A stretch of 64,000 nucleotides of DNA from Candidatus Latescibacterota bacterium (GTDB lineage: Bacteria; Latescibacterota; UBA2968; GCA-2709665). The notes beneath the pieces are model-generated. The model had not been told where the DNA came from, searched no databases, and was given only the letters and a program-made list of their open reading frames with translations. This document shows, piece by piece, positions 1-20,330 of this stretch. Both the position numbers and the translations under genes were made by a program. Numbering within the stretch: the first letter of the stretch is position 1; each line of letters starts with the position of its first letter. The DNA is taken from assembly GCA_965226795.1 (NCBI GenBank), contig CBDDDZ010000004.1, forward strand, positions 827,392-891,391, in the 5' to 3' direction.

Positions 1-15
1 GTTCGGCGTTTCTGA

Positions 16-120
16 GTGTTTTCTATGGGACCGCGCCAGACCTCGGACGGCATTTTGATATTGCCGTGGCAGGATTTCCTTGACCGGCTCTGGAGCGGCG
101 CGAATTTCCCGCTACCATAG
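16..120 (+). pseudogene. 3' end remnant of an AAA ATPase/DUF4143-like gene
   Basis: Frame 1 reads ...RQTSDGILILPWQDFLDRLWSGANFPLP*, resembling the C-terminus of DUF4143 ATP-binding proteins. There is an in-frame TGA at 13-15. A homologous copy lies at 16740-16826. Confidence 0.5.
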
Positions 121-243
121 TCTCCTTTCTGCCGACCTTGTACGCAGACCGCCTTCCCCCAGTCCTTCCCTCTCATCACCGCTTTTTCATTCTCCGATTG
201 ATCGGTCCCGCGTCTCTCCCCTCCCCCGCCGGTTGGATGTATT

Positions 244-716
244 CTATCCCACGATCGCATTGATGTTCTGCACAATAATGTCCGTCGCGCCCAGGGTTCG
301 GAGGCGGATCAGAAGCCCGGCCGTTTGCGATTTAGGCACGACGGTTTCGATCGCGCTGGCGCAATCCGAAAGAGCGCTGAGCGTCGGCGCGCGACGGGCG
401 GGCAGCGCATCCAGGACTGCATTTCTCTGAGAGTTGTCGACGTTCAATTTAATGAGTTGTTGATTCTCAGCCTCGAGCGCGCCGGCCATCAGGTCTCCCA
501 GGGCGATCAATTTGGATATTCGACTTCGCGCGATAACGACAATGGGAGATACCATGATTTCATCGAATATCTCGAGGCCGTTTTCGCGCAGACTGCTGCC
601 CGTTATCGTGACACCCGCGCCGTAGTCGAAAAGCTTCATCGCCACCTTGATTTCGGTGCTTCCGTGTGAGAAGTCGATATCCGCATCCGGGTACCGGTTG
701 CTGGTGATCGCCGGAT
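244..716 (-). repeat. Diverged duplicate of the hisG 3' half, fused in frame to the surface protein
   Basis: The translation RYPDADIDFSHGSTEIK...IIVQNINAIVG matches the HisG C-terminus at 17086-17558, with about 12 substitutions in about 150 aa by manual comparison. Confidence 0.95.
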
Positions 717-1377
717 TCTCGAAGTCGGGAACATCCACGAAGGAAAGCTCTCCCCGTCCGCCCCGGGTGGTGATCTCGAACAGCGCCCGATCGCGGCCTC
801 CGGTAAGCTCGTACCCGGTGATGTAGTCCCTGTCGTCCGGATCCGTCCCCACTATGGAAATGGTCCCGGTGAAGTTCTCATCCACGGTCCGGGAATTGTG
901 GAAGATGGACGGCGGGCTGTTGGCGGTGACCGTGGTCTCGGTGACGTTCACCGTCACGTCATCGGCGGTTACCCCCGTATAGCCGCCGCTGACGGTGTGG
1001 GTGAGGGTGACCTCATCGTCATCGGTGTCGGTGTCGGCGGTGGAGCTCACCGTCACGGTTTGCGGCGTATCCCAGTTCTGGTCGGTGAAGGTCAGCGGCG
1101 ACCGGTTCACCGTGACATCGGCGTCCGACGGCACGGTCACCGTCACCGTCACGTCGGCAGTGGGTTGCATGGTCAGCACCACCGTGTAGGTGTCGCTGTC
1201 GTCCTCCTCCATGGTCAGTTCCGTAGGATAGATCTCCACCCCGGATTCGGCGTCGATGACGACCAGCGGTAGGTCATCGGACCGCACCAGCTCGTACCCG
1301 TTATCGCTGGCCGGGAGGGAAGGCAGCGCCACGATATCGATGGTGACCGCCGCCGTGGTCCCGGCGGTGCGGGACAC
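244..1377 (-). CDS. Distal segment of giant surface protein B: Ig/Calx-beta-like and cadherin domains fused to the HisG C-terminal half
   Basis: Contains TYTVVLTMQP...LTFTDQNWDTPQTVTV and a cadherin-like DPDD...LFEI...PDFENP, then HisG sequence. It continues the upstream ORF across a frameshift at the G6 run near 1406-1411. Confidence 0.8.
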   Translation of the reverse strand: MSRTAGTTAAVTIDIVALPSLPASDNGYELVRSDDLPLVVIDAESGVEIYPTELTMEEDDSDTYTVVLTMQPTADVTVTVTVPSDADVTVNRSPLTFTDQNWDTPQTVTVSSTADTDTDDDEVTLTHTVSGGYTGVTADDVTVNVTETTVTANSPPSIFHNSRTVDENFTGTISIVGTDPDDRDYITGYELTGGRDRALFEITTRGGRGELSFVDVPDFENPAITSNRYPDADIDFSHGSTEIKVAMKLFDYGAGVTITGSSLRENGLEIFDEIMVSPIVVIARSRISKLIALGDLMAGALEAENQQLIKLNVDNSQRNAVLDALPARRAPTLSALSDCASAIETVVPKSQTAGLLIRLRTLGATDIIVQNINAIVG

Positions 1378-2912
1378 CGACAGGGGATTGCTCTCGACAC
1401 GCCCTGGGGGATGGTGATGCTCGTCTCGCCGCTTTCGATATCGCCGTTGGAAAGCCGCAGCGGCAGGACCATATCAAAGGGCGCGCCGGTATGGGCCCTG
1501 GCAACGAACTGGTCCGTTCCTGCCGAATCCAGTGACACGGTAATCGGCAAGGGGTCAACCGGGTTCCACTGAAGTTGGAGCGTGGAAAGCGCCGTCAGCC
1601 CCTCGAAAGCGCTGTCCGGCAGTGACGACAGGTCCCATTGTCTCAGGTCCAGCGATCTCAGTTCCGTCAGTGCGGAAAAGACGGTTGACGGTAATGTGGC
1701 AAGGGCGTTGTTGTAGCCCAAGTCGAGAAACTCGAGCGCGGTCAGCCCGGAGAAGAGGTTGGCGGGCACGGAGGTGAGATCCATGCTACCCAGGTCGAGA
1801 TGGGTCAGCGCCGTCAGGCCGGAGAACAGGTCGGCTTCGAGGCTGCCGCTGCCCATCTGGTTGCGGCTCATGTTGAGGTGTTCCAGCGACGACAACCCGG
1901 AGAACACGGTCGCCGGAAAGCTGGTGAGCCGCGCATACTCCAGGTCGAGGTGTTTTAGCCCGGGCAAGTTGGAGAAGACGTCCGCCGGAAAGCTGGTAAT
2001 TCGGGTATTGCCAAGGTCGAGGTGTTCGAGCGTCGACAACCCGGTGAACTCGTCGGCCGCCAAGTCGCCCAGGAGGCTGTATTGAAGGATGAGTTCGTCC
2101 AGTGCCGTCAGATCGGAGAAACCGTTCGCCGGCAGGCTGTTGATTGTGGCACTCAGCAAATCGAGATGGGTCAGCGCGGTCAACCCGGTAAACAGGCTGT
2201 CGTCGAAGCTGCCGAGACGGCTGAAGGACAGATCGAGAGATAACAGCGCGGTCAATCCGGAAAACGTGTTCGCCCCAAGGCTGGAGAGGTTGTTCTGCCT
2301 GAGACTGAGTTTTTCCAGCGCCGACAGGTCGGAGAAGATATCCGCCAGCAGGCTGCTGATATTGTTGTCTGACAGATAGAGTTCTTCCAGTGCCGACAGT
2401 CCGGAAAAGTCATCGGCTTTCAGCGTGGAGATGCTTTCGTCAGACAGGGAGAGGCGCGTGATCGCGGCAAGATGGTCAGCGGTTACATCGCCGCACGCGC
2501 TGACCCCTGCAGCATCCACGATTGCGTTGCGCACCTTCACGGTGCGGTTGCAGACGTTCCTGAGGTTCGTCACCGACAGGTTGCTAAGGGCGCCGGCGGG
2601 ATTGAGCGCCCGGTCACGGATCGGGTTGGTCCCCGGCGTGTACGCCAGCGCCACCGTCTCGCCCGTGTTCACGGCCGAGGCCAGGGTGAGCGTCACCACG
2701 GTGCTGCTCACCCCCACCGCCGTAACGTTTCGCGCCTCGCTGTCTACGGTGACGGTAAAGTCGCCGTTCGCAGGTCTCGAACCGCTGTCGAGCACCTCTT
2801 CGTAGGTCAGCGTCAGCCGGGTGCCATTGACGCCCGCTTCAGAGGGCGGGGGCTTTTCCATCGACCTTGTGGCTGGACTGGTTGGCGCGTGCAGCGTGCG
2901 CCAGGTCGGCAT
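1215..2912 (-). CDS. Middle segment of giant surface protein B: SwmB-like repeat and leucine-rich repeats
   Basis: Contains VNGTRLTLTYEEVLD...VTLTLASAV...YTPGTNPIRD, a CNRT...C cap, and about 12-13 24-aa LRRs (FSGLTALxxLxLxxNxLxxLP). It joins the upstream ORF by a frameshift near 2840. Confidence 0.85.
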   Translation of the reverse strand: MPTWRTLHAPTSPATRSMEKPPPSEAGVNGTRLTLTYEEVLDSGSRPANGDFTVTVDSEARNVTAVGVSSTVVTLTLASAVNTGETVALAYTPGTNPIRDRALNPAGALSNLSVTNLRNVCNRTVKVRNAIVDAAGVSACGDVTADHLAAITRLSLSDESISTLKADDFSGLSALEELYLSDNNISSLLADIFSDLSALEKLSLRQNNLSSLGANTFSGLTALLSLDLSFSRLGSFDDSLFTGLTALTHLDLLSATINSLPANGFSDLTALDELILQYSLLGDLAADEFTGLSTLEHLDLGNTRITSFPADVFSNLPGLKHLDLEYARLTSFPATVFSGLSSLEHLNMSRNQMGSGSLEADLFSGLTALTHLDLGSMDLTSVPANLFSGLTALEFLDLGYNNALATLPSTVFSALTELRSLDLRQWDLSSLPDSAFEGLTALSTLQLQWNPVDPLPITVSLDSAGTDQFVARAHTGAPFDMVLPLRLSNGDIESGETSITIPQGVSRAIPCRCPAPPGPRRRSPSISWRCLPSRPAITGTSWCGPMTYRWSSSTPNPGWRSILRN

Positions 2913-5900
2913 TTATTGTGGAATTGCTCCTGACGATGCGCCCGCTGTTGAGCTTGAGGCCGTTGGCATTGATGGTCGCGCCATTGGTGTCTTCGTCGGT
3001 GTCCGCCACCGTGTACTGGAACAGTAGCCGGGCCGTTGTCGTGCCGCTCTTGTAGTCCGCCTTCCGCTCGGTGGAACCGAAGGTCAGGTCCATCTGCGGC
3101 GTGCCGGTAACGGTCACCGCTTCGCTGAAGGTGACGTCGATGACGTCGTCTTTCTTGTAGGTATTGTTCTGTCCCGACGGCGGAGTGGAGGTAAAGGCAA
3201 CGCTGGAGACCGTGGGGGCGGTGTGCGTGGTCCCGCTGCCCGTATTGGACCAGGGTCCCTTGCCTTCATCGTTCTTCGCCTGCACCTGGAACTGGTACGT
3301 CCTGCCCGCGCGGAGGCTGCTGAGAACCCGGGTACGCGTCACGCTGCTGTCCGGAGAGGCGGTGTATGACCCGCTGTCGCGGTATTGCAGGAAGTAGTTC
3401 GTGATATCCGGACCGGTATTTGTCGGCGCGTCCCACCGCACCGTCAGGCTGCTCTCCGTCGTGTCGCTCACCACCGGAGGGTTGGGCTTGCCCGGTGGCT
3501 CGACGGCGTCCTCGATGGTGACGGTGATGGTCTGCGCCGCCGTCAGCGCCCGGGTGTCCGCCCCGCCCGTCACCTCCACCTGGACGGTGTATTCGTTGTC
3601 GCTGCCCGCATCCGCCGGCCGTTCGAAGTCAGGGTCATCCTTGAAGTGCAACTCCCTGGTATTCGCAATCTCGAAGTCGTCCCGGTCCGCACCGCCCGTG
3701 ACCGCGTATCCCGGATGCTGTCGTCCCTGTCCACGTCCTGCGCGGCCAGCCGCCCTGCCCTCAGGACGTTTTCCACAACCATGAACGTATCCACGCTGGT
3801 GAAGTGGGGGGGTTCGTTCTCGTCCGTGACATTGACGGTAACCGTCTGCTCGGCGGTGAGCGCCCTGCCTCCCGTACCCCCCGGTAGCCGTGACCTCCAC
3901 GACGTAGCTGTTGTTGCTGCCAGCATCCGTGGGACTCTCAAAGTCCGGGTCATCCTTGAACGTCAACACGCCCGAGTTGCTGATTTCGAGCCTGCCGCGG
4001 TCGCTGCCGCCGGTCAGGGTGTAGTCCGTGATGGCATCGCCCTGGTCCAGGTCGTCGGCACTGACACTGCCGGCGAAGGACTGGTTCTCCGCCGCCTCCA
4101 GCGTCTCCTCGCCGGTGAACACGGGCACCTCGTTCAGATCCGTCAGGTCGATGGACACCGGGATGGTGCTCTGTCCGTCGTGGCCGTCGGTGGCCTTCAC
4201 GTTCACCGAATAGCGGGAGAGGGCCTCGAAGTCGTAGGTCCTGCCCGATCGGGTCTTGAGCTGCCCGCTACGCGTGTCGATCGAGAAGGAGTCCGCGTGC
4301 GTGCCTTCCAGCGCGTAGGTCAACGTGGTCTTCTCGGCGTCGGTCGCACTGACTGGATCGCCGATGTCCTTCACGCCCGTCGTGTTCTCCGCCAGGGTGC
4401 GTGTCGCGCCGGACCCGTCAGTGAATGTTGGCAACTGATTGGGATCGGTGCTTCCCGTGCCCGATTCCGACCAGTCGCTCGCGCCTTCGTCGTTGCGCGC
4501 CAGCACCTGCACCTGGTGGGTGGTGTCCGGCGTCAGGCCCGTGATTGCGGTCGTACGTTCCGCGCTGTTGAACCGCCAGGATGTGAATCCGCCGGTGTCT
4601 CCTTCCCGGTACTGCACGTCGTAGTCGGTGATGTCGGGGCCTGTGTTTGTGGGCTCCTCCCACGTCACATCCAGGCTGGTGGACGAGGACGCCTGGACGC
4701 CGGGCGCGTCCGGGATACCGGGCTTTTCCTGCTGGTCCGTCAGGTTGATCGTGACCGCAATGGTGTTGCTGCCGCCCTGCCCGTCTTCGACGCGCACGAT
4801 GACGTTGTAGCGAGACTTTGCCTCAAAGTCGTAGCTCTGCCCGGACAGCGTCTGAAGCTGCGCGTCGTCCAGCGCGAAGGAAGCCCGGTCCGTGCCTTCG
4901 AGGTCGTAACTTAGCGTGCCGCCGTCGGTATCCCTCGCGGTGAGCGGGTTGCCGATATCGTTTGTGCCCGTGGTATTCTCTGCCAGAGAGCGCGTGGTGC
5001 TCGTACCCTCGTTGAAGGTGGGCGCCCGGTTGGCGACGGTCCTGGCGTCGGCGGACTCAGACCAGTCGCTTTCTCCTTCGGGAGAGCGCGCCAGCACCTG
5101 CACCCGGTAGGGCGTGTTGGCATTCAGGCCGGTGATCGTGGTGGTCGTCCCTGGCCCGGTGTGCGGCCAGTCGGTGAAGGCGCCGCCGTCCTCGCTATAC
5201 TGCACGTCGTAGTCGTTGATGGCCGGACCGGTGTTGGCAGGGGCCGTCCATCGAATGGACAGGCTGTTCAGCGTTTGTGCCGTGACCGTGGGCCTGCCGG
5301 ACGCCTCCGGTTCCTCGGTGTCGTCGTCGATCACGTTTATGGTCACGGTGATGCTGGCGGTTTCGCCCTGTTCGTCGTGCGCTTCCACCGTCACGGAATA
5401 GCGGTCTTTCGTCTCGAAGTCGTAGGTGACGCCCGTCGCGGTCTGCAGTTGACCGGTATTGGTGTCGACGTCAAAACTCTCCGTGTCGCCGCGGGAGAGG
5501 CTGTACGTCACCGTGGTGTTTTCCGGGTCGGATGCCCGTAGCGGGACGCCGAGGTCGGTTGTACCGGTCGTATTCTCTGCCACCTCGCGCGTGGCGCTGC
5601 CACCCTCGTCGAATACCGGCGGCAGATTGGAACTGGTGGTCCCGAAGCCGGAGCGGGAATATAGGGAGGTTCCTTCGTCGTTGGTTGCCCGCACCTGCAC
5701 CTCGTAGCGGGTGTTGACGTCGAGTTCGATGATCGTCGCGCTCGTACCCGGCCCATCGTGGGTATGGGGAATGAAGTTGCCGTTCTTCCGGTATTGCACG
5801 TCGTAGTCGGTGATATCCGGACCGGTATTGTCCGGCGCATCCCACGTGACCGTCAGGCTGGTGGTGGAGGCGGGCTGTACCAGAGGCGCGGCGGGAATCT

Positions 5901-7914
5901 CCGGCGGTTCGTTCACGTCGGCCACGTGGATGGTGACGCCGATCGTGGCCGATTCGCCGTAGGGGTCGTCGGCTTCCAGGTCAACGGAATACCGGTCGTT
6001 ATCCTCGAAGTCGTACGCGACCCCAGACAGGGTACGCAACTGCCCGCTGCCGGTGTCCACGGAAAAACTGGCGGAGTCCGGCCCCGAGAGTCTGTACGTC
6101 ATACGGTGTCCGTCCGGGTCCGTGGCGTTTACCGGATGCTGGATGGGACGGCGTGCGGGCGTGTTCTCCGCCACGGTGCGCACCGTGTTTGTCCCGTCGT
6201 CGAAGGTCGGCGGCCGGTTGTCTTGCGGCGGCGGGGGTGGCGGTGGCGGCGGCGGAGGGATGAACGGCCCGCCGGGACCACCTGTACCAGGCGGCGGGGA
6301 TGGGGGTGTCGTGACGACAACGGCGAAGGTCGTCTGTGCACTGTTTCCATACGCGTTGCTGGCCGTGGCGGTGATGGTCGCGCGCCCCGTGGCCACGCCG
6401 CGCACCGTCGCCAACGTATCCGCGACGGTGACCGTGGCAACCCCCTCGTGGGACGACGTGGCGCCATACGTCAGCGCCCCCAGCGCCGGACGCGTAAACA
6501 GGCTGGCGAGGTTCACCCGCAGGTCGCGGTCTACGTACACCGTCTGGTCGCCGATGACGCCCAGGGGTCGCGGATCCACCGTAGGCGCGCCAACAACGGG
6601 CTCCGACCAGGGACTCTCGCCCTCGTCGTTCAGTGTGCGCACGCGCACCTGATACGTTTGTTCGTTGGTCAGTCCGGAAATCGTGATGCTGGTATCCGTG
6701 CGGCTGTCCAGCAACAGCCCCTCCAGCCAATCCTCGCTGTCTGCCGCCCGATGCCCAACCTCGTATCCGCTTACTGGGGGCTTTCCCGCCTCGTCCGGCG
6801 CCTCGTTCCAGGTCATGGTCAATGCGGTGTCGTGCGGGGCCACCGCCACGCTGGCAGGCGGCGCGCCGGGGGGTTCGTCCACGTCCGTGACGGCGACGTC
6901 CACCACGACGGTGGCGCGGCCCCCCTGACCGTCACTGGCGCGCACGGTGACGGAATACGCGTCCCTGGCTTCGTAATCGTACGCTGCCCCCTCCCTTGTG
7001 AGAAGCTGACCCGTTCCCGATTCTATTGTAAAGCTGTCCGCGTGCACGCCACGCAGGCGGTACGTGAGAGAGTCGCCGTCGGCGTCCGTGGCCGACACGG
7101 GGTTCCCGATGGGCTCGCCGGCTGCCGTATTCTCTTCCACCGAGCGCGTCACCGGCGGTGTGGCGCCGAAAGCGGGTGCGCGGTTGGCCTCTTCGCCGAA
7201 GCTGCTGGCAAAGATCACGAAGTCGTCGAAGCCGATGCCGCCGTCGTTGTTGAGGTCGAACTCCGCCACGTACTTACTATCGCCCCGTTGCGCCCCGAAG
7301 ACGCCGGCAAAGGCCACAAAGTCGGAAAACCCTACAAGCCCGTTGCCGTCGAAGTCCGGAGAAGGCGGTGCGGCCACCTGCAGCGCCACGCCAATGGCAG
7401 AAGAGATCGTCTCGGTCTGCCCGCCACGGGCAAGTTCCGCGTCGACAAGCCAGATCTCTGTATCAGAGAATGCAGCCGTCGTACGCAATCGCACCGTGCC
7501 GACCAGGCCGGTGTTCACCGTTGCTGATCCACTCAACGACGAAACGCCAACGCTGAAGGAAGTGGAATCCTGCTGTAGGTTAGCATGGGCGTTCGGCAAC
7601 GCCTCGCCGGGATCGAAGCCATCGAACGCAATCTGGCCCGGATCGTATCCGAAGCGCGCGGAAATGCCCTGGGCGTTCTGAATATCCGAGGCGAAAATCT
7701 GGACGGAGACAGGCTGATCGGGCAGGAGGTCGATCGAGGACACGGACTGGTCGCCAGCGGCATCGTTCAGGTCCAGCGTAAGGGAAAACCCGCTTGGTTG
7801 CGTGGACGGCGACCGCGGGAGCGCGAACAACACCAGGCAAAGCACACCCGCGGCGCCGAGGGTGAAAGACCCAATGCTTATTCGCGAACGACAAAGTACA
7901 CCGAAAAAGGCCAC
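2839..7914 (-). CDS. Giant secreted surface protein B, N-terminal part: cohesin-like, dockerin/EF-hand, cadherin and fibronectin type III repeats
   Basis: GTG start placed at 7914 by alignment with paralog A. Has a hydrophobic N-terminus, a DFDGNGLVGFSDF...DLNNDGGIGFDDF pair, alternating cadherin (ENT...DPD...YDFE) and FN3 (WxxP...YDVQY...YQVQV.A.N.EG...WS) units and a poly-Pro linker. Compensating frameshifts occur near 3880 and 3712. Confidence 0.9.
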   Translation of the reverse strand: MAFFGVLCRSRISIGSFTLGAAGVLCLVLFALPRSPSTQPSGFSLTLDLNDAAGDQSVSSIDLLPDQPVSVQIFASDIQNAQGISARFGYDPGQIAFDGFDPGEALPNAHANLQQDSTSFSVGVSSLSGSATVNTGLVGTVRLRTTAAFSDTEIWLVDAELARGGQTETISSAIGVALQVAAPPSPDFDGNGLVGFSDFVAFAGVFGAQRGDSKYVAEFDLNNDGGIGFDDFVIFASSFGEEANRAPAFGATPPVTRSVEENTAAGEPIGNPVSATDADGDSLTYRLRGVHADSFTIESGTGQLLTREGAAYDYEARDAYSVTVRASDGQGGRATVVVDVAVTDVDEPPGAPPASVAVAPHDTALTMTWNEAPDEAGKPPVSGYEVGHRAADSEDWLEGLLLDSRTDTSITISGLTNEQTYQVRVRTLNDEGESPWSEPVVGAPTVDPRPLGVIGDQTVYVDRDLRVNLASLFTRPALGALTYGATSSHEGVATVTVADTLATVRGVATGRATITATASNAYGNSAQTTFAVVVTTPPSPPPGTGGPGGPFIPPPPPPPPPPPQDNRPPTFDDGTNTVRTVAENTPARRPIQHPVNATDPDGHRMTYRLSGPDSASFSVDTGSGQLRTLSGVAYDFEDNDRYSVDLEADDPYGESATIGVTIHVADVNEPPEIPAAPLVQPASTTSLTVTWDAPDNTGPDITDYDVQYRKNGNFIPHTHDGPGTSATIIELDVNTRYEVQVRATNDEGTSLYSRSGFGTTSSNLPPVFDEGGSATREVAENTTGTTDLGVPLRASDPENTTVTYSLSRGDTESFDVDTNTGQLQTATGVTYDFETKDRYSVTVEAHDEQGETASITVTINVIDDDTEEPEASGRPTVTAQTLNSLSIRWTAPANTGPAINDYDVQYSEDGGAFTDWPHTGPGTTTTITGLNANTPYRVQVLARSPEGESDWSESADARTVANRAPTFNEGTSTTRSLAENTTGTNDIGNPLTARDTDGGTLSYDLEGTDRASFALDDAQLQTLSGQSYDFEAKSRYNVIVRVEDGQGGSNTIAVTINLTDQQEKPGIPDAPGVQASSSTSLDVTWEEPTNTGPDITDYDVQYREGDTGGFTSWRFNSAERTTAITGLTPDTTHQVQVLARNDEGASDWSESGTGSTDPNQLPTFTDGSGATRTLAENTTGVKDIGDPVSATDAEKTTLTYALEGTHADSFSIDTRSGQLKTRSGRTYDFEALSRYSVNVKATDGHDGQSTIPVSIDLTDLNEVPVFTGEETLEAAENQSFAGSVSADDLDQGDAITDYTLTGGSDRGRLEISNSGVLTFKDDPDFESPTDAGSNNSYVVEVTATGGYGRQGAHRRADGYRQCHGRERTPPLHQRGYVHGCGKRPEGRAAGRAGRGQGRQHPGYAVTGGADRDDFEIANTRELHFKDDPDFERPADAGSDNEYTVQVEVTGGADTRALTAAQTITVTIEDAVEPPGKPNPPVVSDTTESSLTVRWDAPTNTGPDITNYFLQYRDSGSYTASPDSSVTRTRVLSSLRAGRTYQFQVQAKNDEGKGPWSNTGSGTTHTAPTVSSVAFTSTPPSGQNNTYKKDDVIDVTFSEAVTVTGTPQMDLTFGSTERKADYKSGTTTARLLFQYTVADTDEDTNGATINANGLKLNSGRIVRSNSTINADLAHAARANQSSHKVDGKAPAL

Positions 7915-7973
7915 GAAAACCTCGGAAAACTGCGAAATCCCGAAATTCGTGTGTTTCTGATAAATGCTCGCAG

Positions 7974-9401
7974 CATTGCTGTCCAAGAACCGTGGGATAA
8001 TGAGACATCAGGATCGTAAAGTGGCTTAAATCGGCGATTTTGTAGTGGTTTGACCCGAACAATGCGAACCAGGTTGCCAAAGCGTGAGTATCTGCTGTCC
8101 AAGAAATCAGAGACGTAATTTGAGTTGTACAGGGACAGGGTGTTGGGGCGGTGTATGAAACGGATTATTGATCCAGGTCCACAAATCACGATAGGTGAAG
8201 AGGTTCCATCTCAACAAGGCGACGAGATTGGACAGTGCCCAATTGAGGCGTGAGCGCAGTTGCAGGTATTTGAGCAATAGCATCGCGATCAATGCTGTCC
8301 AAATTTGAATCTTGAGGGCGTTGGCGGAAGTGCCCACGAAGGTCTTGACCTTGAGATTTTGTTTCAACGCTTTGAAGAAGAGTTCAATTTGCCACCGGTC
8401 TTTATAGATGCGTGCAATGGTGGTGGGTCCGAAGTGCAGATGGTTGGTCAGAAACGTGAGGGTCTTGTCGGATGCGCTGTCGTGATAAGTGATGCGTCTG
8501 AGGCGATGAGGACAGGCGCGTTTGGCTTGCGGTCCGGTGAATCGGATGATTTCGTCGGATAAGATGCCCCCCTTTTGTGGCGTCTTGCGCGTCTGTACGA
8601 CCTCATAAGCGGCATTGGACTTTTGCCGGGTCAAAAAATAGACGCCTTCTTCACTCCGGTGCGAGAAGAGGCTGTAATCGGTGAAGCCGCGGTCGACCAC
8701 GACGATGCTTCCTTGTGGAAAGCGCAACGTCTGTGCGACATTGACCTCGTGCACGTCTCCTGGCGTGATTTGAGCGAAAACGGGCAGGTAGCCGTCGTGG
8801 TCAAGCAACAGATGCAACTTCACCGCTCCTTTGGTCTGACGGAATTTTGCCCAGTCAAAAAGGCTGACACACAGGTCGATCACCGAAGCGTCCAGCGACA
8901 GCAGTTTGTTGCGAAATCGAAATTTCCGCCTGCCTCCTGCACGGGCAACCTGTGCGGAATGATCCAGACGGCATTTCTCCAACAACTGGTAGAACACACG
9001 CTCAAACAACTGCCAGGGCCGGTGCTTGTTGGCATACGATAGCGTGGACCGCTTCGGCGCCTCCCGAACCCCCACATGGATCAACTTGCCCAGACAACAC
9101 GAAAGCCCATCACAGATCTCACGTAACGAGTGCGCTTGCGCCAACTGGCAGAACAGCATCGCCACAAACTGTTCCCAGCAGGTGAACCCTTTACTGTACC
9201 GCTCTGCCTGATGCGCTTTCACCGCATGCTGAAACTGGTTGCGAGGGATTAAATCTAACAGTTGACTGAAAAAACTGGCTGTACGTACCATACACCTATC
9301 CTCCGGGATGCGCTTCATGGATTCTTGTTTTACTCTTCTACTTCCATGATCGCATACTCGGAGGAATTATTACTTTTCAAAACCGTTTTTGGACAGGTGT
9401 G
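7974..9401 (-). mobile_element. IS4-family insertion sequence
   Basis: Imperfect terminal IRs: CATTGCTGTCCAAGAA (7974-7989) and the reverse complement CACACCTGTCCAAAAA (9386-9401). 9-bp flanks TGCTCGCAG / TGCTGGCAG. An extra internal IR lies at 8092-8105. Confidence 0.85.
8107..9318 (-). CDS. IS4-family DDE transposase (DUF4372 + DDE_Tnp_1-like)
   Basis: Motifs FTCWEQFVAMLFCQL...SLREI, LDASVID, KLH, VVDRGF and YKDRWQIELFFKALKQNLKVKTFVGTSANA. Confidence 0.95.
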   Translation of the reverse strand: MKRIPEDRCMVRTASFFSQLLDLIPRNQFQHAVKAHQAERYSKGFTCWEQFVAMLFCQLAQAHSLREICDGLSCCLGKLIHVGVREAPKRSTLSYANKHRPWQLFERVFYQLLEKCRLDHSAQVARAGGRRKFRFRNKLLSLDASVIDLCVSLFDWAKFRQTKGAVKLHLLLDHDGYLPVFAQITPGDVHEVNVAQTLRFPQGSIVVVDRGFTDYSLFSHRSEEGVYFLTRQKSNAAYEVVQTRKTPQKGGILSDEIIRFTGPQAKRACPHRLRRITYHDSASDKTLTFLTNHLHFGPTTIARIYKDRWQIELFFKALKQNLKVKTFVGTSANALKIQIWTALIAMLLLKYLQLRSRLNWALSNLVALLRWNLFTYRDLWTWINNPFHTPPQHPVPVQLKLRL

Positions 9402-9539
9402 TGCTGGCAGGACATTGACATGCGCCAAGATACGTTCCCGGATACATTTGTGCCAATGTTTATCAGAATCCGAATGTGGGACACCTGGCGAAAAATCAGC
9501 CCATAGACCGTGTTGAATGGTCGTTGTCGACCACAGCGT

Positions 9540-9990
9540 CCCGGCGGCAATCGCCTTCGTGCCCGAAAAATAGGTACCCGGGGCGGGATCGATGGGGGTT
9601 TGGAATGGAGTGAGGGAGGGGTTCTTCAACAGGTCGAGATTTATCCATGGCGCGGATCCGCATCCCAGAGCGTGGCCCATCTCGCGCAGAAAGACGGCAT
9701 CAATCAAGCTGCCCGAGTACACGCTCAGGTAGCCCGGGTCAGATTCGATTATGCATGCATACGTCAGCGAGAAAGGGTCCTGGCTTCGTATGTGCGTCGT
9801 ACCTGCGATGCCGCCGAACTAGTCGCGCTGCCGGCTGAACCGGGATCCACAAGGATCTCAGTACCGATCACATGAAAGGAAGCGGCGGCCGTATTTCCGG
9901 ACAACGCCGTATACGTCAGCAGGTCCCTTTCTGGCTGCTGAACACGCCGCCTGCGGACACGATCTCGACGGCACCGTCCCACCGTCCTCG
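9540..9990 (-). pseudogene. Orphan remnant of an Ig-like domain plus a leishmanolysin (M8)-like zinc protease
   Basis: Fragments ERDLLTYTALSGNTAAASFHVIGTEILVDPGSAGSAT and IDAVFLREMGHALGCG...W...LLKNPS...TYFSGTKAIAA (degenerate HExxH). No start codon; internal stops. Confidence 0.6.
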
Positions 9991-9999
9991 AACACCTGA

Positions 10000-12900
10000 C
10001 TAAAGCTCGTTCACGACAATTTCATTGTCCGTGCCGCCAATAACCTCGTACTTCATCGGCGCATTCAATGCTCCACTTGCGTTCAGGGTGATCTTCCCCT
10101 GCCCCGAGGTTTGCACGCGGATTCCGATCCTGGCGGCCGTGATACTCCCGGTGTGGGTAATCGTGATATCCCCGCCCTGGCTCACCACGTCGATACCTAT
10201 GCTGGGAGCTTCGGTGGCGCCCTCAGGGGCGCCGATGTCGCCGCTGTTCCAGACCACGACGTCGCCTATACGGTAGACGTTCTTACAAACGATGTCCGGG
10301 TCCACCGGATCGCCTGCCGCCGTCTCACATCCCGGTCCAGGAACATCCCCACCCATCCCAGCAATTGATATTCCCGCCGAGTACGAAGATTCCGCATTCG
10401 TCGAGTACTTGTTCGTCGCCAAGATATTCCCGGTGTTGAATACCTTGATCTCGCCGCCGCGGTAATGCTCGGCGCGAATACCGTGGGCCGCCTCGCCGTC
10501 CGTGCTGATCGTACCGGTATTTTCCACATGAACGCCATCGTGCTCCGATGTGTCCGGGGAGTCTGGAATGTCGGGGTACGAAGTGTCATCGAGATCTCTG
10601 TCGTTATCGTATCCGTAAGCATATATGCCGTGGCTCCATTTTCCCTCCGTATCGATCGTCCCCTGGTTGATCGCGAAGACCCGGCCGGACATCGAACTCC
10701 TGGCGATGATTCCATATCCGTGGCGGTGTCTCCGTGTGTCGTCCGTGCGTGTCGTCGCCCTCGTGGTGATGGAGGCGTCACTGTAGTTCCTCGCGTAGAC
10801 ATCGCCCGGCACGTTGCTGGTCCGGTCGGGGACGATCTCATCCAGGTTCCCGTGGCAACCGTTGTTCTCGAACGGCCACGGCGCGCAGTTCCCCGTGTGC
10901 AGGCCTATCGCGTACAGACCGTTGATTTCGATTGAGCCGAAGTTGAGACCCTGTGACGCTCCCCAGAGACTCTGAGCCGAGATCCCGCGCGCGCCCTCTC
11001 CTTCAATCCGGATCTGGCCTTCCGCATAGTTGACCAGTCGTGTGAGATGTCCGCTTCCAGTCTCGCACTTAAGACCGTCAACTCGCTTGTTGTAGGGACC
11101 GGTAGCAATGAGTTGGCCGCCGGGCATGTTGAACAACTCGACCTTGTGGCTGTAGTTCGAGAAGTCATGGGGCTCCGCCGCCTTGTTGAGGCCCCCGACC
11201 ACAAGACGATGGTTGGATTGAGCCGAGTCCGGCGCGGTGGTGAGGCCGTTCAGTGTGATTTCTCCGTCGTTCACGAGGAGTATGTTGGCGGGGGAGGCCT
11301 TCATCACCGCGCGGATGCCGATGCCCGCGCTATCGAGAGTTACGGAGCCTTGGTTCAGGATCCAAAGGTTCCCGGTGTTGCCTTCCGTTGTGATGTTGGC
11401 CGCGACGCTTCCTCTTGCAGTTACCTCGGCGCTGTCGCCGATCGTGATCGCGTGGTACTCGGAACCCGCGTTCTTGTTGGTGATGTTGATCCCTGCAGTA
11501 CCGGTTGCCGGCTCGAGCGTTCCGTCGTCGTATTCGACGTGGGTGCGGTTATGATCGCCGGGATCGAGCGTACTGGTGTGGTCGCCACTATAGGCGTGAG
11601 TCACCGGTTGACCGAAGCGATGGTCCTCATCCGGAGCCGCCGTGAAGACCGGAGTCGAGGAAGGAACAATCGACGCGGGGAGGATCGTGCCGTAGACCTG
11701 ATCGGACCATGGGCCCTTCCCTTCGTCGTTCTCCGCCTGCACCTGAATCCGGCAGATCCTGCCCGAGCTCAAGCCGGTGATCGTGCGAGACCGGGTGGGA
11801 CCGGTCTCGTGCCAATTGCTGAAGGCGCCGCTGGCGCCTTCCCTGTACTGCACGTAATAGTTCGTGATGTCGGGACCTTGGTTTTCTGGCGCATCCCAGC
11901 TCACGGTCAGGCTGCTCTCCGTCTCGCCGCTCACCGTGGGCGGGTCGGGCTTGCCCGGCGGTTCGACGTCATCCTTCACGAGGACGACGACCGTCTTGGT
12001 GCCCGGCATTTCGCGGGTGCCGCTGCCGCCGGTCGCCTCCACCACCACGCTGTAGTCGTTGTTGCTCCCTGCATCCGCGGGAGTCTCAAAGTCGGGATCC
12101 TCCTTAAAACGCAGCTGGTTCGTGCTCGCGATCTCGAACAGGTCCCCGTCTGCGGCGCCGGTGACAGCGTATCCGGTAATGGCATCACCGGCATCGACGT
12201 CCTGGGCCACCATTAGTCCGGCGAACCGGGTGTTCTCGGTGACCTTGAAGGTGTCTTCAATGGTGAAAACCGGCGGCTCGTTCTCGTCCGTGACATTGAC
12301 GGTAACGGTCTGCGCGGCGGTTAGTGCGCGACCGCCGGAACCGCCGGTGGCGGTGACCTCCACGACGTAGCTGTTGTTGCTTCCCGCGTCCACGGGACGC
12401 TCGAAGTCGGGGTCATCCCTGAACGTCAGCGCGCCGGTGTTGCTGATTTCGAGCCTGCTGCGGTCGCTGCCGCCGGTCAGGGTGTAGTCTGTGATGGCAT
12501 CGCCCTGGTCCAGGTCGTCGGCACTGACCCTGCCGGCGAAGGACTGGTTCTCCGTCGCCTCGAGCGTCGGCTCGCCGGTGAACACGGGCGCCTCGTTCAG
12601 ATCGGTCAGATCGATGGACACGGGGATGTTGCCCTCGCCGCCGTGGCCGTCGGTGGCTTTGACATTGACCGAATAGCGCGACAAGGCCTCAAAGTCGTAG
12701 GTCCTGCCTGATCTGGTTTTAAGCTGACCGCTACGCGTGTCTATCGAGAAGGAGTCCGCGTGCGTGCCTTCAAGGGCGTACGTCAGCGGGGTCATCTCGG
12801 GGTCCGTGGCGCCCACCGGATCGCCTATGTCCTTCACGCCCGTGGTGTTCTCCGCCACGGTGCGTGTCGCGCCGAGCCCGTCAGTGAATGTTGGCAACTG

Positions 12901-15900
12901 ATTGGGATCGGTGCTTCCCGTGCCCGATTCCGACCAGTCGCTCGTGCCTTCTGGCGAGCGCGCCAGCACCTGCACCTGGTAGCTCGTACCCGGGGTGCGG
13001 CCCGTGATGGTTGCGGTGCGCTCCGCGCTGTTGTGCGTCCAGCCGCTGAAGCCGCCGCTGTCCCCTTCCCGGTACTGCACGTCGTAGTCGTTGATGTCGG
13101 GGCCGGTGTTTGCCGGCTCGTCCCACGTGACCTCCAGGCTGGTGGACGACGCCGCCGAGACGGAGGGCGCGTCGGGGGTGCCGGGTCTTTCCTGCTGGTC
13201 CGTCAGGTTGATCCTGACCGCAATCGTGTTGCTGCCGCCCTGCCCGTCTTCGACGCGTACGATGACGTCATAGCGGGGCTTTGCCTCAAAGTCATAGGTG
13301 ACTCCCGGTTGGGTCTCAAGCTGCGCGCCGTCCAGCGCGAACGCGGCCTGGTCCGTGCCTTCCAGGTCGTAGGTGAGGGTTCCCCCGTCGATATCCCTCG
13401 CGGTTAAGGGGTTGCCGATATCATTTGTGCCCGTGGTATTCTCCACCAGAGAGCGCGCGGTGCTCGTCCCCTCGTTGAACGTCGGCGCCCGGTTGGCCAC
13501 GGTTCTGGCATCGGCGGACTCGGACCAGTCGCTCTCCCCTTCGGGAGAGCGTGCCAGCACCTGCACCCGGTAGGGCGTGTCGGCCGTCAGGGAGGTGATG
13601 GTCGTGGTCGTCCCCGGCCCCGTGTGCGGCCAGTCGGTGAAGGCGCCGCCGTCCTCGCTGAACTGCACGTCGTAGTCGTTGATAGCAGGACCGGTGTTGG
13701 CAGGGGCCGTCCAGCGTATGGACAGGCTGTTCAGCGTCTGCGCCGTGACCGTGGGCTTGTCAGGCGCCTCCGGCGCTTCGCTGTCGTCGTCGGTCACGTC
13801 TATGGTCACGGCAATGGTCGCCCGCCCGCCCTGCTCGTCCTGCGCTTCCACCGTCACGGAGTAGCGGTCCTTCGTCTCGAAGTCGTAGGTGGCGTCCGCC
13901 GATGTTCGCAGTTGACCCGTATTCTCATCGACGTCAAAACTCTCCATGTCGCCGCGGGTGAGGCTGTACGTCAGTCGTCCGCTTCCACCGCGGTGTTCTC
14001 CGGGTCGTCCGCTCGCAGCGGGACGCCCAGGTTGTGCACACCGGTCGTATTCTCGGCCACCTCGCGCGTGGTACTCCGTCCCTCGTCGAACACCGGCGAA
14101 AGGTTGGAACTGGTCGTCCCGAAGCCTGATCCAGACCACCCGCCCTCGCCTTCGTCGTTGTGTGCGCGCACCTGCACCTCGTAGCGAGTGTTGACGTCAA
14201 GGTCGATGATGGTCGCACTCGTGCCCGGTCCGTCGTGTGTATGGGGGAGGAAGTTGCCGCTCTTCCGGATTTGCACGTCGTAGTCCGTGATATCGGGACC
14301 CGTGTTGTCCGGCGCGTCCCACGTGACCGTCAGGCTGGTGGTCGACGCCGGTTGTACCAGCGGCGCGGCGGGAATCTCCGGCGGCTCGTCCACGTCGGCC
14401 ACGTGGATGGTCACGCCGATCGTGGCCGATTCGCCGTAGGGGTCGCTGCCTACCAGGTCGACGGAATACCTGTCGTTATCCTCGAAGTCGTACGTGATGC
14501 CCGACAACGTGCGCAGTTGGCCACTCCCGGTGGCCACCGAAAAGCTGGCGGAGTCCGGCCCCGAGAGTCTGTACGTCACCCGGTGTCCGTCCGGGTCCGT
14601 GGCGTTGACCGGATGCTGAATGGGACGGTGCGCGGGCGTGTTCTCCGCCAGGGTGCGCGACGTGCTGCGCCCGTCGTCGAAGGTCGGCGGCCGGTTGTTC
14701 TGTGGCGGCGGAGGCGGTGGCAATACTGTCGTTACGTCGACGGCAAAGGTCGTCTGTGCGCTTTTGCCCTGTACATCGCTGGCAGTGGCGGTGATGGTCG
14801 CGCGCCCCGCGGCCACGCCGCGCACCGTCGCCATCGTATCCGCCACGGTCACCGTGGCAACCCCCTCGTCGGACGACGTCGCGTCATACGTCAACGCCCC
14901 AAGTGCCGGCCGCGTGAACAGGCTGGCCAGGTTCACGGGAAGGTCGCGGTCGACGACCACCGTCAGGTCGCCGATCACGCCCAGGGGCCGCGGACCCACC
15001 GTGGGCGCGCCGGCAACGGTCTCCGACCAGGGGCTCGCGCCCTCCTCGTTCACCGTGCGCACGCGCACCTGATACGCCCGCTCGTTGTCCAGACCCGCAA
15101 TCGTCACGCTGGTGTCCGTGCGGCCTACCACAAGCAGCCCCTCCCGCCATTCTTGGGCTTCTGCCGGGTTGTGCCCCACCTCGTACCCGCTCACGGGAGG
15201 CTTGCCAGCCTCGTCCATCGCCGCAAACCAAGTCACGGCGAGCGCCGTGTCGCGGGAGGCCACCCGAACGCTGTCAGGCGCCGCCGAAGGGGGCTCGTCC
15301 ACGTCCGTGACGGTGATGCCCACCACAACCGTGGCGCGGCCCCCCTGCCCGTCGCTGGCGCGTACCGTCACGGAATAGGTGTCCCTGGCCTCGTGGTCGT
15401 ACGCAGTTCCCTCTCTTGTGAGAAGCTGACCCGTGCCCGGTTCAATCGCAAAGCTGTCCGAGTGCACGCCCCGCAGGCCGTAGGACAGGGAATTGCCGTC
15501 GGCGTCCGTGGCCGTGACGGGGGCCCCGATGGGCTGTCCGGATGGCGTGTTTTCTTCCATGGTACGCGTCAACGGAGGTGTGGCGTCGAAAGCGGGAGCG
15601 CGATTGGGATTTTTGCCGAAGTTGCTGGCGAAGACCAGAAAATCGTCGAAGCCGATGCCGCCGTCCTGGGTCAGATCGTACGCCGCCACGTACTTCCCGT
15701 CTCCGCGCTGCGACCCGAAGACGCCGACGAACGCCACAAAGTCGGAGAAGCCCACCACGCCGTCGCCGTCGAAGTCCGGAGAAGGCGGCGCGGCAACCTG
15801 CAGCGCCACGCCGGCCGCGGGCGAGATCGTCTCGGTCTGCCCGCCCCGCGTAAGCTCGGCGTGCTCCAGCCACACCTCCGTGTCCGAAAACGATGGCGTG

Positions 15901-16334
15901 GTGCGCAATCGCAGCGTGCCCACAAGCCCGGTGTTCACCGATGCGGAGCCGCTCGACCACGACACACCGATACGGACCGACGTGGTATCCGGCTGTGCAA
16001 CGGCCTGCGCGTTCGGCAGCGCGTCGCCCGCATCGAAGCCCTCGAAGACAAGCTGCGTCTGATCATACGTCAGGCGCAACGAAACACCACTGGCATCCTG
16101 TATGTCCGTTGCGAAGATCTGTATCGCGAAAAGCTGATTAGGAAGGAGGTCGAGCGAGGACACGGACTGGTCGCCTGCGGCATCGTCCAGGTCCAGCGTG
16201 AGAGAAAACCCACTCGGCTGCGTGGACGGCGACCACGGGAGCGCGAACACAAACAGGCAGATCAGGCCGACGACGCCGAGGGTGATAGAGCTGATCTTAA
16301 TTCGTAAACCAGAAATTGCGCCGAAAAAGCCCAC
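10000..16334 (-). CDS. Giant secreted surface protein A (cohesin-like, dockerin/EF-hand, cadherin, FN3) with a beta-helix-like C-terminal tip; split by a 14-nt insertion
   Basis: ORFs 13971-16334 and 10000-14139 are colinear with protein B. The C-terminal ~560 aa contain repeated NxGxIxTxG..AHGIxA motifs. The frameshifting insertion is at 13974-13987. Confidence 0.9.
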
Positions 16335-16739
16335 GAAATCCTCAATTGAACTGCAAAAATCCGAAATTTGTGTGTCTTTTTTGTGAGTGGGTTCGACATC
16401 GATATTTTCCGGGATAAATATACAAAATGTAATAATAAATATTTAGAAGTAAATTTACCAATGCATTTTCCGATCCAAGTGTCGGGTACCCGCCGAATAC
16501 AACAGCCCATAGGACGTGTTTATCTGTGGTTCGTCAAAGCTCCCGAAAAGGAAAAACGCCACGAACATATCGTAGCGTTACAGATTGCGTTACCGTGGAG
16601 CACAGCGAAGCCGCTCTGGACACGGCATCAAATCTTCGTTCTGGCCTTAAAGATCCAAATGTCTGTTTTAGATATTCATGTATAATCGAATATCAGTTTT
16701 GGATTTGACCGGCAAAAATGAGTCGCCTATGTGCGACCG

Positions 16740-16826
16740 CGCCGGACCGCGGACGGGATTCTGATCCTGCCCTGGCGGGATTTCCTCGACCGGCTCTGGA
16801 GCGGCGCGATTCTCCCGCCCGCGTAG
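16740..16826 (+). repeat. Second copy of the AAA/DUF4143-like 3' end
   Basis: Reads RRTADGILILPWRDFLDRLWSGAILPPA*, homologous to 34-120. Confidence 0.7.
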
Positions 16827-16847
16827 TCTCTATTCTTACGACTCCCC

Positions 16848-17119
16848 ACGTGTCCCGTCCTTTCCTCTCCGCTTTTTCTGTCCACGCCTTCCTGTTGTCC
16901 CGCCCGCTCTTGCCGCGTCCCCCTGCCCAGCCCGTTCGACCGGCCGCCGCTATCCCACGATCGCATTGATGTTCTGCACAATACGTGTCCCGTCCTTTCC
17001 TCTCCGCTTTTTCTGTCCACGCCTTCCTGTTGTCCCGCCCGCTCTTGCCGCGTCCCCCTGCCCAGCCCGTTCGAACCGGCCGCCGCTATCCCACGATCGC
17101 ATTGATGTTCTGCACAATA
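16848..17119. repeat. Tandem duplication of about 135 bp including the last ~11 codons of hisG
   Basis: ACGTGTCCCGTCC...GTTCTGCACAAT starts at both 16848 and 16983; the copies differ by one 1-nt indel. Confidence 0.95.
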
Positions 17120-17946
17120 ATGTCCGTCGCGCCAAGCGTGCGCAGGCGGATCAGAAGCCCGGCCGTTTGTGATTTGGGCACGACGGTTTCAATCGCACTC
17201 GCGCAATCCGACAAAGGGCTGAGTGTCGGCGCGCGCCGGGCGGGCAGCGCATCCAGGACTGCATTTCTCTGACAGTTGTCGACGTTTAATTTGATGAGAT
17301 GCAGATTTTCGGCCTCGAGCGCGCCGGCCATCAGGCCTCCCAGGGCGACGAATTCGGAAATTCGGCTGCGTGCAATGACAACAATGGGAGATACCATGAT
17401 TTCATCGAATATTTCGAGGCCGTTTTCGCGCAAACTGATGCCCGTTATCGTGACGCCCACGCCATAGTCGAAAAGCTTCATTGCCACCTTTATTTCGGTG
17501 CTTCCGTGTGAGAAGTCGATATCCGCATTCGAATAGCGGTCGCGGGTGATCGCCGGATATTCGGAACTGATCGTCACTGTTGCATTTTGCGACAACGGCG
17601 GGCTGTCCGGCCGTCCGAACAGGATAACGCGGGCAGAGTCGCGGGTATCCCGGCTGATGTTCAGTTCCGCGAGGCGTTGAATTCGGGTGTCGATTGGGGA
17701 TTCTTGTGCGAGTTCGGTTTCGACCACGCAGTCCAATCCGCAGATACCGCAGTCGATCTGTCCTTTCAACAGGGCCAGCGGAATATCCTGCGGGCGCATA
17801 TAGACGGCCTGGCTGAAAAGGTCGAGACCGTCTATCGCAACCTGACCGTTGCGTCCGCTGGGGCGAATGTCCAGCCCAACTCGGGAGAGCAGGTCGCACA
17901 GCGGTTGTTGCATGCTGCCGTTGGGCAGACCGAGCGTGAAGTTCAT
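17086..17946 (-). CDS. hisG: ATP phosphoribosyltransferase, long form
   Basis: Motifs LPNGSM, RPQDIP, DCGICGLD, SEYP, SHGSTE, TITGISLRENGL and the C-terminal regulatory domain PARRAPT...GATDI. Lies downstream of hisI. Confidence 0.95.
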   Translation of the reverse strand: MNFTLGLPNGSMQQPLCDLLSRVGLDIRPSGRNGQVAIDGLDLFSQAVYMRPQDIPLALLKGQIDCGICGLDCVVETELAQESPIDTRIQRLAELNISRDTRDSARVILFGRPDSPPLSQNATVTISSEYPAITRDRYSNADIDFSHGSTEIKVAMKLFDYGVGVTITGISLRENGLEIFDEIMVSPIVVIARSRISEFVALGGLMAGALEAENLHLIKLNVDNCQRNAVLDALPARRAPTLSPLSDCASAIETVVPKSQTAGLLIRLRTLGATDIIVQNINAIVG

Positions 17947-17949
17947 GTG

Positions 17950-18379
17950 TCACTCCGGGATGGTTTTGGGATCCACGAATTTGAGTTTTCCGTTGGCTAT
18001 GCTGCGGTAAAAGCAGCCGTAGCGTGTTCGATCGTTCTCCTTTGTGTGGCACGTTCCATCGCCCTTCAGGCGCACCAGATATAGCAGTGAGTTCTGCTCG
18101 CAGTTGATGCGCACGTCGATCAGTTCGAGCATATCCCCTGACGTTGCCCCCTTGATCCAGAGTTCGTCGCGCGATGTACTCCAGAATGTCGCCACTCGAT
18201 GTTCAAGTGCGTGGTCCAGCGCCTGTTCTATTGGCGTAGCCGATCAGGAGTACCGCTTTGCTGTCCACGTCCTGTACGGCAACCGGGATGACGGAGTGGC
18301 CGGTTTTTGCAACCCTGGACAGCTTCTCGAAGTCGAGCTGGATCTCGGTGCCTTCTTCAATTGTGTGATTGGAGGCCAT
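17950..18379 (-). CDS. hisI: Phosphoribosyl-AMP cyclohydrolase with an apparent 1-nt frameshift near 18229
   Basis: MASNHTIEEG...LDFEKL...IPVAVQDVDSKAVLLIGYAN, then EQAL...ATFWSTSRDELWIKGATSGD...NCEQNSLL...CHTK...CFYR. Confidence 0.9.
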
Positions 18380-19875: not shown

Positions 19876-20293
19876 CGGTGGGACGTGGATTGTTCGCGGC
19901 ATGAAGCGCACCGCTCACCATCAGCCTCGAACGCCAAAACCAGGCGTCCCCTGTTGTCCCGAAGAATCGCCGGTACAACAGGTCATCCGCTACGCGGGTG
20001 GAGGCAGATACCGCGCTTGAAGGTACAACATCACTATTGAACAGTACATCGAGCAGTCCTATCGAGCGAACGGTGGTGGAGCTGGGGGTTTTTCCGTGCT
20101 ATTCCGTCCGGCAAGATAGTTCGGGATGGGCTAGTCCGGTGAAAGGGCAACCCATTCCCATTTGGGCTCTCGAGGTGGTTCACGGAAAAACCGGCCCCGC
20201 GCCGAGCGGCGCCCTTCTTTTTCGCCCTTTTTCTTGGGCGAAGCAAGAAAAAGGGCAAGGGAATAGGGGACGTTTGGGGATGGAGGAAATTCC
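19876..20293 (+). repeat. Non-coding structured repeat element, left copy (MITE-like)
   Basis: Homologous in inverted orientation to 39535-39973, e.g. CCGCTCACCATCAGCCTCGAACGCC, CACGGAAAAACCGGCCC and AAAAGGGCAAGGGAATAGGGGACGTT. Confidence 0.85.
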
Positions 20294-20330
20294 ATGTCCC
20301 TGTAATCAGACGTTTTGTTGATCGAAAGGA

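Follow-up and report, generated by a model that had tools for sequence, protein, structure and literature searches.

A diverged direct repeat around a giant surface-protein block in a Latescibacterota genome: a candidate product of homology-facilitated illegitimate recombination

Introduction

The window analysed here is a stretch of 64,000 nucleotides (C4:827392-891391) from a five-contig, 5.41-Mb genome of Candidatus Latescibacterota bacterium (G000; 95.9% complete). Near its left end lies a block with two giant surface-protein genes, adhB and adhA, bracketed by two diverged copies of part of a hisG paralogue and of a remnant of an AAA-type gene. A first-pass annotation, made from the letters of the window, had read this 16-kb block as the product of Campbell-type integration. 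Two observations weigh against this: the left repeat copy stands where the last 1.9 kb of adhB should be, and the relative closest at hisG (G008) holds the block with a whole adhB and no repeat. We propose instead, at about even odds, that the left copy is approximately 1 kb of sister-lineage DNA, which took the place of the final 1.9 kb of a resident adhB through homology-facilitated illegitimate recombination (HFIR).

Relatives are referred to by code labels from G001 onward, and 14 congeners were compared at the locus; X1, X2 and X5-X9 denote sequencing runs whose contigs were compared with the window. The names adhA, adhB, "adhesin" and "lipoprotein" are labels based on domain content and signal-like N-termini, and the role in adhesion is putative. 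The stretch is held by 11 runs, 4 of which are labelled sponge metagenome, and the records of 12 close relatives are assigned to Candidatus Latescibacterota (8), Gemmatimonadota (3) or uncultured (1). Eukaryote-like proteins with fibronectin type III (FN3) domains and leucine-rich repeats (LRR) are known from sponge Latescibacterota, according to the available part of that report (PMC12993501). No literature on this locus was found in a search made mostly without subscription papers and not including supplements.

Results

The features of the block and its borders are listed in Table 1; negative coordinates lie to the left of the window. The insertion sequence (IS) between the two adhesin genes has DUF4372 and DDE_Tnp_1 domains, a combination that we take as the marker of an IS4-type element.

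Table 1. Features at the adhesin block, in window coordinates
Feature	Position	Strand	Remarks
AAA_14/DUF4143 remnant, left	1..120	+	starts 28 bp before the window; 5'/3' join near 30-40
Spacer, left	121..243
hisG paralogue, 3' half, foreign-type allele	244..716	-	about codons 129-286; 90% to right copy
Imperfect 27-nt microhomology, hisG / adhB cadherin-type repeat	695..721		in-frame fusion point
adhB remnant (FN3, cadherin, LRR surface protein)	717..7986	-	last ~615 residues missing
IS4-type element	7979..9396	-	ends CTGTCCAA; transposase 8107-9318, DUF4372 + DDE_Tnp_1
Orphan decayed adhB-type C-terminus	9426..9975	-	protease-like domain, HExxH changed to RExxH
adhA	10000..16334	-	single open reading frame in G008 and G013
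Promoter-like stretch and deleted AAA remnant, right	16621..16826	+	ATG 16678, stop 16824-16826
137-bp tandem duplication	16848..17119		absent from all relatives
hisG paralogue, intact, right	17086..17946	-	286 aa
PRA-CH (hisI-type) open reading frame	17950-18195		upstream of right hisG

The homology first annotated between 30-716 and 16736-17558, with a diverged spacer, is real. In the hisG part (244-716 against 17086-17558), 426 of 473 nt are identical (90%) in a gap-free alignment; across the spacer (26-277 against 16732-16983), identity is 70% with 38 gap columns. The repeat extends beyond the bounds originally given: its copies start at about -79, some 80 bp outside the window, and at about 16621, and it also covers a promoter-like, AT-rich stretch and the 5'-terminal ~20 codons of the AAA gene. 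The two copies share at most 48 consecutive identical bases (244-291).

The right hisG open reading frame (ORF) clears the hisG equivalog cut-off (83 vs 76 bits). It is a divergent paralogue; most relatives hold another hisG with ~33% identity, and this second gene lies in an operon in all three that were fetched. Neither hisG piece contains a stop codon. Over 156 codons, the copies differ by 32 synonymous and 15 non-synonymous changes, so that the silent differences and open frames of the first-pass annotation stand, while its estimate of about 12 residue differences becomes a count of 14. The synonymous divergence (dS) is 0.338 and the non-synonymous divergence (dN) 0.044, giving a dN/dS of 0.13; for comparison, hisG of G008 and G013 gives dS 0.341 and dN/dS 0.125. 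Because these values resemble those of two congeneric species, the two hisG halves must have diverged as working genes in separate lineages, which upholds the earlier proposal that the partial copy came from a functional gene of another lineage. The codons unique to the left copy comprise 13 synonymous and 6 non-synonymous changes. Relaxed selection on the left copy was considered and rejected: 3 of its 6 unique replacements fall at otherwise invariant positions, but with 2 of 4 for the right copy and 2 of 7 for G013 there is no signal.

The right hisG is nearer to G008 (93.4%) and G013 (89.0%) than is the left (89.4% and 86.6%), and identity to G003 is 84.3% for the left and 86.4% for the right copy. 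In a comparison covering 15 listed of 41 members of the HisG cluster, 7 of the 12 other full-length members listed differ from the 3' half of the right protein at 1-3 residues, and all 12 differ from that of the left at 14-18.

Facing hisG in 11 of the 14 congeners is a gene of 386-388 aa, the G003 copy of which contains AAA_14 and DUF4143 (Pfam); in G012 the gene is lost. Both copies in G000 consist of the first ~20 codons fused to the last ~27, with about 1,010 bp lost. The right copy is thus a fragment, as first annotated, and the left is no whole gene either, since both are the same deleted remnant. No intact orthologue was found in the G000 assembly, and none lies to the left of the window. 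The same internally deleted allele (ΔAAA) occurs in G008 and G013, the two closest species. Because ΔAAA is present in both copies and in these two species, it was not the duplication that gave rise to the deletion. As judged from the alleles themselves, it likely arose at microhomology between PRQT/PRRT codons; this self-match is the top one in 2 of 7 intact AAA alleles (G009 and G005) and falls below the top four in the other five. Upstream of the left remnant are the promoter-like AT-rich stretch and a dispersed repeat of ~190 bp (about -340 to -150). The left spacer is 73-75% identical to G008 and G013, and the right spacer 60-62%. The left promoter and AAA 5' end match G008 nearly exactly, and the right tail and spacer are G003-like (89-92%).

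G000 is collinear with G008 and G003 as far as -338, and collinearity resumes at 694. The interval measures 1,031 bp in G000 but 1,918 and 1,921 bp in the two relatives, i.e., an insertion coupled with a deletion. The 1,031-bp segment is made up of the dispersed repeat element, the end of which coincides with the left edge of the segment, followed by promoter, ΔAAA and the hisG half. The part of adhB that it replaces encodes the last ~615 of 2,972 residues, with FN3 and a Peptidase_M8-like domain containing HExxH. At the right edge, a cadherin-type repeat of adhB and the hisG piece form one continuous reading frame (ORF 244-1377), and the switch from hisG to adhB occurs inside a stretch of 27 nt that the two share in the same frame (hisG codons ~128-136). 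When hisG of G008 is set against adhB of G003, the closest adhB near the junction, 21 of 27 nt agree at this position, tied best of 9,913 diagonals. The adhB remnant is frameshifted near 1400 and near 2840 and has a compensating pair of shifts at 3713/3875; the first two are contained in X6 contigs free of gaps and appear genuine. We rejected the possibility of a working HisG-adhesin fusion, as the upstream adhB frame is broken at these two positions and the first ~128 HisG residues are absent. Neither the fusion ORF nor the short left ORF has an exact match in the protein collection. A third adhB-like gene is found elsewhere in G000 (C3:595184-603975) and is ~76% identical to adhB over 5.6 kb.

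Over its N-terminal 4.7 kb, adhA is 80% like adhB, whereas the C-terminal module differs. The assembly has 14 extra bases near 13972 that break adhA; since these are missing from contigs of three runs (X6, X7 and X8), we consider them an assembly error and adhA one gene, as in G008 and G013. The stretch 9426-16267 is 98.1% identical to G013, whereas the sequence just to the right has ~91.5% identity and 65 one-kb pieces from elsewhere have a median of 85.6%. Identity to G008 is 95.4% overall and mostly 97-100% in 500-bp windows, against a background median of 89.3% (54 pieces). By these identities, adhA, which encodes a surface protein of 2,100 residues, appears to have been transferred recently across species. 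The tracts that are near-identical to G013 and G008 stop within the 5' end of adhA or the promoter, outside hisG, so the earlier suggestion that hisG anchors adhesin exchange gains no support from them. An essential anchor role is unsupported also because this hisG is a divergent paralogue and relatives carry a second hisG in their his operon. The orphan adhB-type piece is ~99% identical in G013. Together, adhA and adhB display a constant 5' part, a variable 3' part and an orphan 3' piece downstream, an arrangement of the type seen at Rhs and contact-dependent inhibition (CDI) loci. No toxin or immunity families are among the Pfam matches of the window proteins, although no search was aimed at them. 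A contig of X8 links the adhB 5' region (7686) to the adhA 5' end (16129), a chimeric adhesin allele from another population.

In the 14 congeners, the cargo between three lipoprotein-like repeats and the AAA promoter varies by species. The fixed left border is formed by three tandem genes for lipoprotein-like proteins of ~180 aa (L001:12690-14551; window -2310 to -449), which are ~89% alike, have no Pfam family and occur in two or three copies in relatives. The slot is empty in G001, G010 and G012 and nearly empty in G007; it holds adhB alone in G003, adhB and adhA in G008, and adhA with other genes in G013; the remaining genomes have other large proteins of secreted type. One fixed position thus houses varying cargo of a similar kind, as in replacement islands. 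In G008, which is closest at hisG (95% aa), a whole adhB (3,020 aa) is followed by adhA, ΔAAA and hisG. Empty AAA-hisG sites, the existence of which the first-pass annotation had anticipated, occur in 3 of 14 relatives, but not in close relatives with ΔAAA: the three empty genomes are the most distant species, with AAA whole or absent and never ΔAAA, and in the ΔAAA relatives (G008, G013) and G003 the slot is filled, such that a matching empty target has no example among close relatives. The first 110 bp after the lipoproteins are common to G000, G008, G003 and G007 and absent from the three empty genomes. A duplicate of the flank recurs in 1 of the 14 relatives: in G002 (L040), ~12 kb past the hisG stop, a second promoter-AAA piece comprises three AAA segments that are 95-98% like the species' own gene and is joined to an adhesin 5' fragment at an imperfect match of 14 nt. 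One more relative, G008, has a microhomology join: there, a 5-nt match links the 5' end of adhB with the orphan piece.

The left junction is bridged with 0 differences by a 436-bp contig of X1 (2019, study P1; 417-852) and by a 1,979-bp contig (657-2635) of X6, a run of study P3 that may represent the source sample. Depths in X6 are 10.5-12.6 across the contigs of the left copy, junction, adhB, IS, adhA and right flank. No single short-read contig crosses the whole block. Among the pieces listed, none bridges the junction in X5, X8 or X9, the hisG contigs of which stop matching at 716, and none in X2, although an exact left-type piece (157-305) is present there. One X6 contig covers 15177 to 16979 without a break, through the first unit of the 137-bp tandem; from these comparisons, the tandem is probably an assembly error.

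The absence of a visible integrase was noted early and stands: all 4 tyrosine recombinase matches are on another contig, and no serine resolvase match was found in the 95.9% complete genome. The block is nevertheless not free of mobile elements, given the IS4-type transposase. No tRNA is found from -15 kb to 18.5 kb. ComEC and DprA are present with open frames in G000.

Discussion

Three histories with one illegitimate join yield this gene order, and they differ in the position of the homologous crossover. In the HFIR history that we favour, with a probability of roughly 0.5, the ancestor would have resembled G008 (lipoproteins-adhB-adhA-promoter-ΔAAA-hisG). Linear DNA from a donor with an empty allele (lipoproteins-repeat element-promoter-ΔAAA-hisG) would have paired by homology on the left, in or beside the lipoprotein genes. 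The right join, which is observed, lies in the imperfect microhomology between hisG and the cadherin-type repeat of adhB, and the observed outcome is a 1,031-bp segment in place of 1,918-1,921 bp. The adhB frameshifts would have been acquired later. The bracketing repeat would then be a by-product, with the right flank of the donor now standing to the left of the block. We infer the direction of import, and the adhesin block is likely the resident. This history is preferred because G008 shows the state before the event, the right HisG has close matches and is nearer to G008 and G013, and the sizes fit HFIR, in whose products an average of about 1 kb is gained and about 1 kb lost, with 3-10 bp of microhomology, in the available part of PMC3240628. 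The 110 bp of the filled type that G000 retains after the lipoproteins and the two further microhomology joins at this slot, in G002 and G008, also speak for it. The hallmarks of HFIR found here are a microhomology join at one end, an insertion and deletion of similar size, and DNA of another lineage.

Several observations weigh against this reading. A full-length hisG of the left type was not found in the 14 congeners, a JGI metagenome scan or the cluster members listed. The JGI scan gave 2 loci from 278 pattern matches, one G003-like with a whole AAA gene and one distant, and a GTDB scan gave 12 loci in which every hisG is full-length (81-95%). No foreign tract is seen to the left of -338, and the 250 sites from -750 to -500 include a single difference from G008. 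Identity to G008 in flanking 500-bp stretches ranges from ~84 to 99%, so that a value of 89% is in itself no proof of foreign origin. The phylogeny proposed in the first-pass annotation could be made, but the tree leaves the left and right copies, G008 and G013 unresolved (G017 was omitted as too distant). The distribution of G008-type sequence in the left promoter and spacer and G003-like sequence in the right tail and spacer would fit a reciprocal mosaic too. The microhomology ranks between 1 and 1,250 of ~9,100-9,900 diagonals over 9 proxy pairs at +1/-1 scoring, being third at best with pairs other than G008 hisG and G003 adhB, and lower still at +1/-2; since its rank shifts with proxy allele and scoring, the enrichment is suggestive only. 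Finally, ComEC and DprA occur in 10-11 of 14 control genomes, including E. coli, and their presence is therefore no proof of competence.

Alternatively, a circle (adhB'-IS-adhA-promoter-ΔAAA-hisG') could have formed in a donor by closure at the microhomology between hisG and adhB, and the block could have come in when this circle recombined once with an empty ΔAAA site, somewhere in the shared 800 bp and for instance at 244-291. Such a Campbell-type entry, which we consider unlikely, results in the same gene order, with direct repeats flanking the block and the 48-bp exact match at 244. It accords with a left copy in which promoter and spacer look vertical and hisG foreign, and a right copy in which the spacer looks foreign and hisG native. 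A left-spacer-like contig (95%, depth 38) and a right-type-leaning hisG contig (depth 40) in X5, linked by depth only, also fit, and single-crossover duplications are commoner than HFIR in E. coli conjugation in the available part of PMC3240628. However, the empty ΔAAA recipient that it requires was not seen, G008, G013 and G003 being filled; the order adhB-orphan-adhA is common to G008, so the block looks resident; and the right-type promoter, spacer and hisG pieces of X5 all have depths of 58-78. The left hisG is no more G003-like than the right, as it might be if the donor had a G003-like spacer, and neither an integrase nor a tRNA or att site is nearby. Tandem duplication within the genome at the microhomology, followed by deletion of the first adhB-adhA copy beside the repeat element and later replacement of one hisG from another species, is a doubtful option. 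The G002 duplicate, so similar to its own AAA gene, offers a parallel, the natural end of the dispersed repeat is the left boundary at about -340, and tandem duplications without flanking repeats are known (available part of PMC3784515). This requires three events, though, and a dead copy should drift neutrally, contrary to the 13 synonymous and 6 non-synonymous changes in codons unique to the left copy.

HFIR in the reverse direction, with the left copy as the old empty-site allele and adhB'-adhA-ΔAAA-hisG imported with its anchor in or beyond the hisG 5' half, seems more doubtful still. It suits the stacked look of G002 and G008, the model for Vibrio effector modules (available part of PMC5361080) and the recent sharing of adhA between species. 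Yet it is the right hisG, unlike the left, that has close matches elsewhere and is nearer to G008 and G013, and an import of 17 kb far exceeds the HFIR average of ~1 kb. We regard as very unlikely that the kilobase entered by two illegitimate joins, at the end of the repeat element and at the hisG/adhB microhomology, without a homologous anchor. The sharp left boundary at the element end and the lack of a donor tract further left would be accounted for, but the piece sits in the order and place of the empty allele, which anchoring explains and chance does not. An assembly chimera of two strains, the alternative that the first-pass annotation had named as fatal to its reading, is extremely improbable. 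Local assembly errors do exist (the 14-bp insertion and probably the 137-bp tandem) and no contig spans the block, but the left junction is bridged in two studies without a difference and the X6 depths are even.

HFIR, to return to the favoured reading, has been described in Streptococcus pneumoniae, Acinetobacter baylyi and Pseudomonas stutzeri, and the available part of that account (PMC3240628) shares with G000 the insertion of ~1 kb with a similar deletion, microhomology at one end and independence of an integrase. The microhomology in G000 is longer and imperfect (21/27) by comparison, and a diverged direct repeat remains because what came in is another allele of this very locus. With effector-immunity displacement at the type VI secretion loci of Vibrio cholerae and with orphan 3' ends of Rhs and CDI genes, as far as described in the available part of PMC5361080, G000 has in common a fixed locus with stacked alleles, truncated remnants and an orphan C-terminal piece; HFIR was proposed there. 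The cargo in G000, in contrast, consists of FN3/cadherin/LRR surface proteins with no toxin-immunity pairs seen, and the remnant derives from the conserved flank (ΔAAA-hisG). Replacement flexible genomic islands (available part of PMC10872708) likewise have varying cargo of like kind, conserved flanks, mosaic borders and no integrase; the slot described here differs in being sometimes additive via microhomology joins, in lacking tRNA borders and in being free of cargo in some species. Campbell-type integration and merodiploids made by transformation (available part of PMC3784515) share a block between direct repeats and a truncated next to a whole gene. The repeats in G000 are only 70-90% alike, however; compared with relatives, the block has lost part of its own end, and in the closest relative no repeats accompany it.

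More tentatively, sponge-dwelling Latescibacterota may possess an integrase-free slot beside the second hisG in which giant eukaryote-like surface proteins are swapped across species, with alleles and C-terminal modules traded and stacked by homologous and microhomology recombination. If so, the slot would be like polymorphic toxin loci, but for host-facing adhesin-proteases, and G000, G002 and G008 would each keep a separate natural HFIR junction. The processes are known ones, and the locus adds a new example: a likely recombination scar of known chemistry with a dead adhB as the outcome. It is a natural, sequence-resolved candidate for HFIR between species in an uncultured symbiont, and one where host-facing FN3/cadherin/LRR proteins apparently move between species (adhA 98% to G013 vs ~91% in the flanks), such that the spread of eukaryote-like proteins among sponge symbionts becomes testable at one site. 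It also calls for caution, as a block inside a diverged direct repeat need not have been inserted.

Additional observations

G000 has no counterpart of the canonical hisG-hisD-hisC-hisB operon seen in relatives, none of the 9 kb around it and no hisD; an assembly gap is likelier than loss. Two families of dispersed repeats of 120-400 bp, with many copies in the genome, are represented at the locus, one at about -340 to -150 and one at 19887-20298. Further diverged direct repeats (67-83%) occur in the window at 25168-25951/33272-34052, 47885-48081/55379-55559 and 49000-49101/51675-51776.

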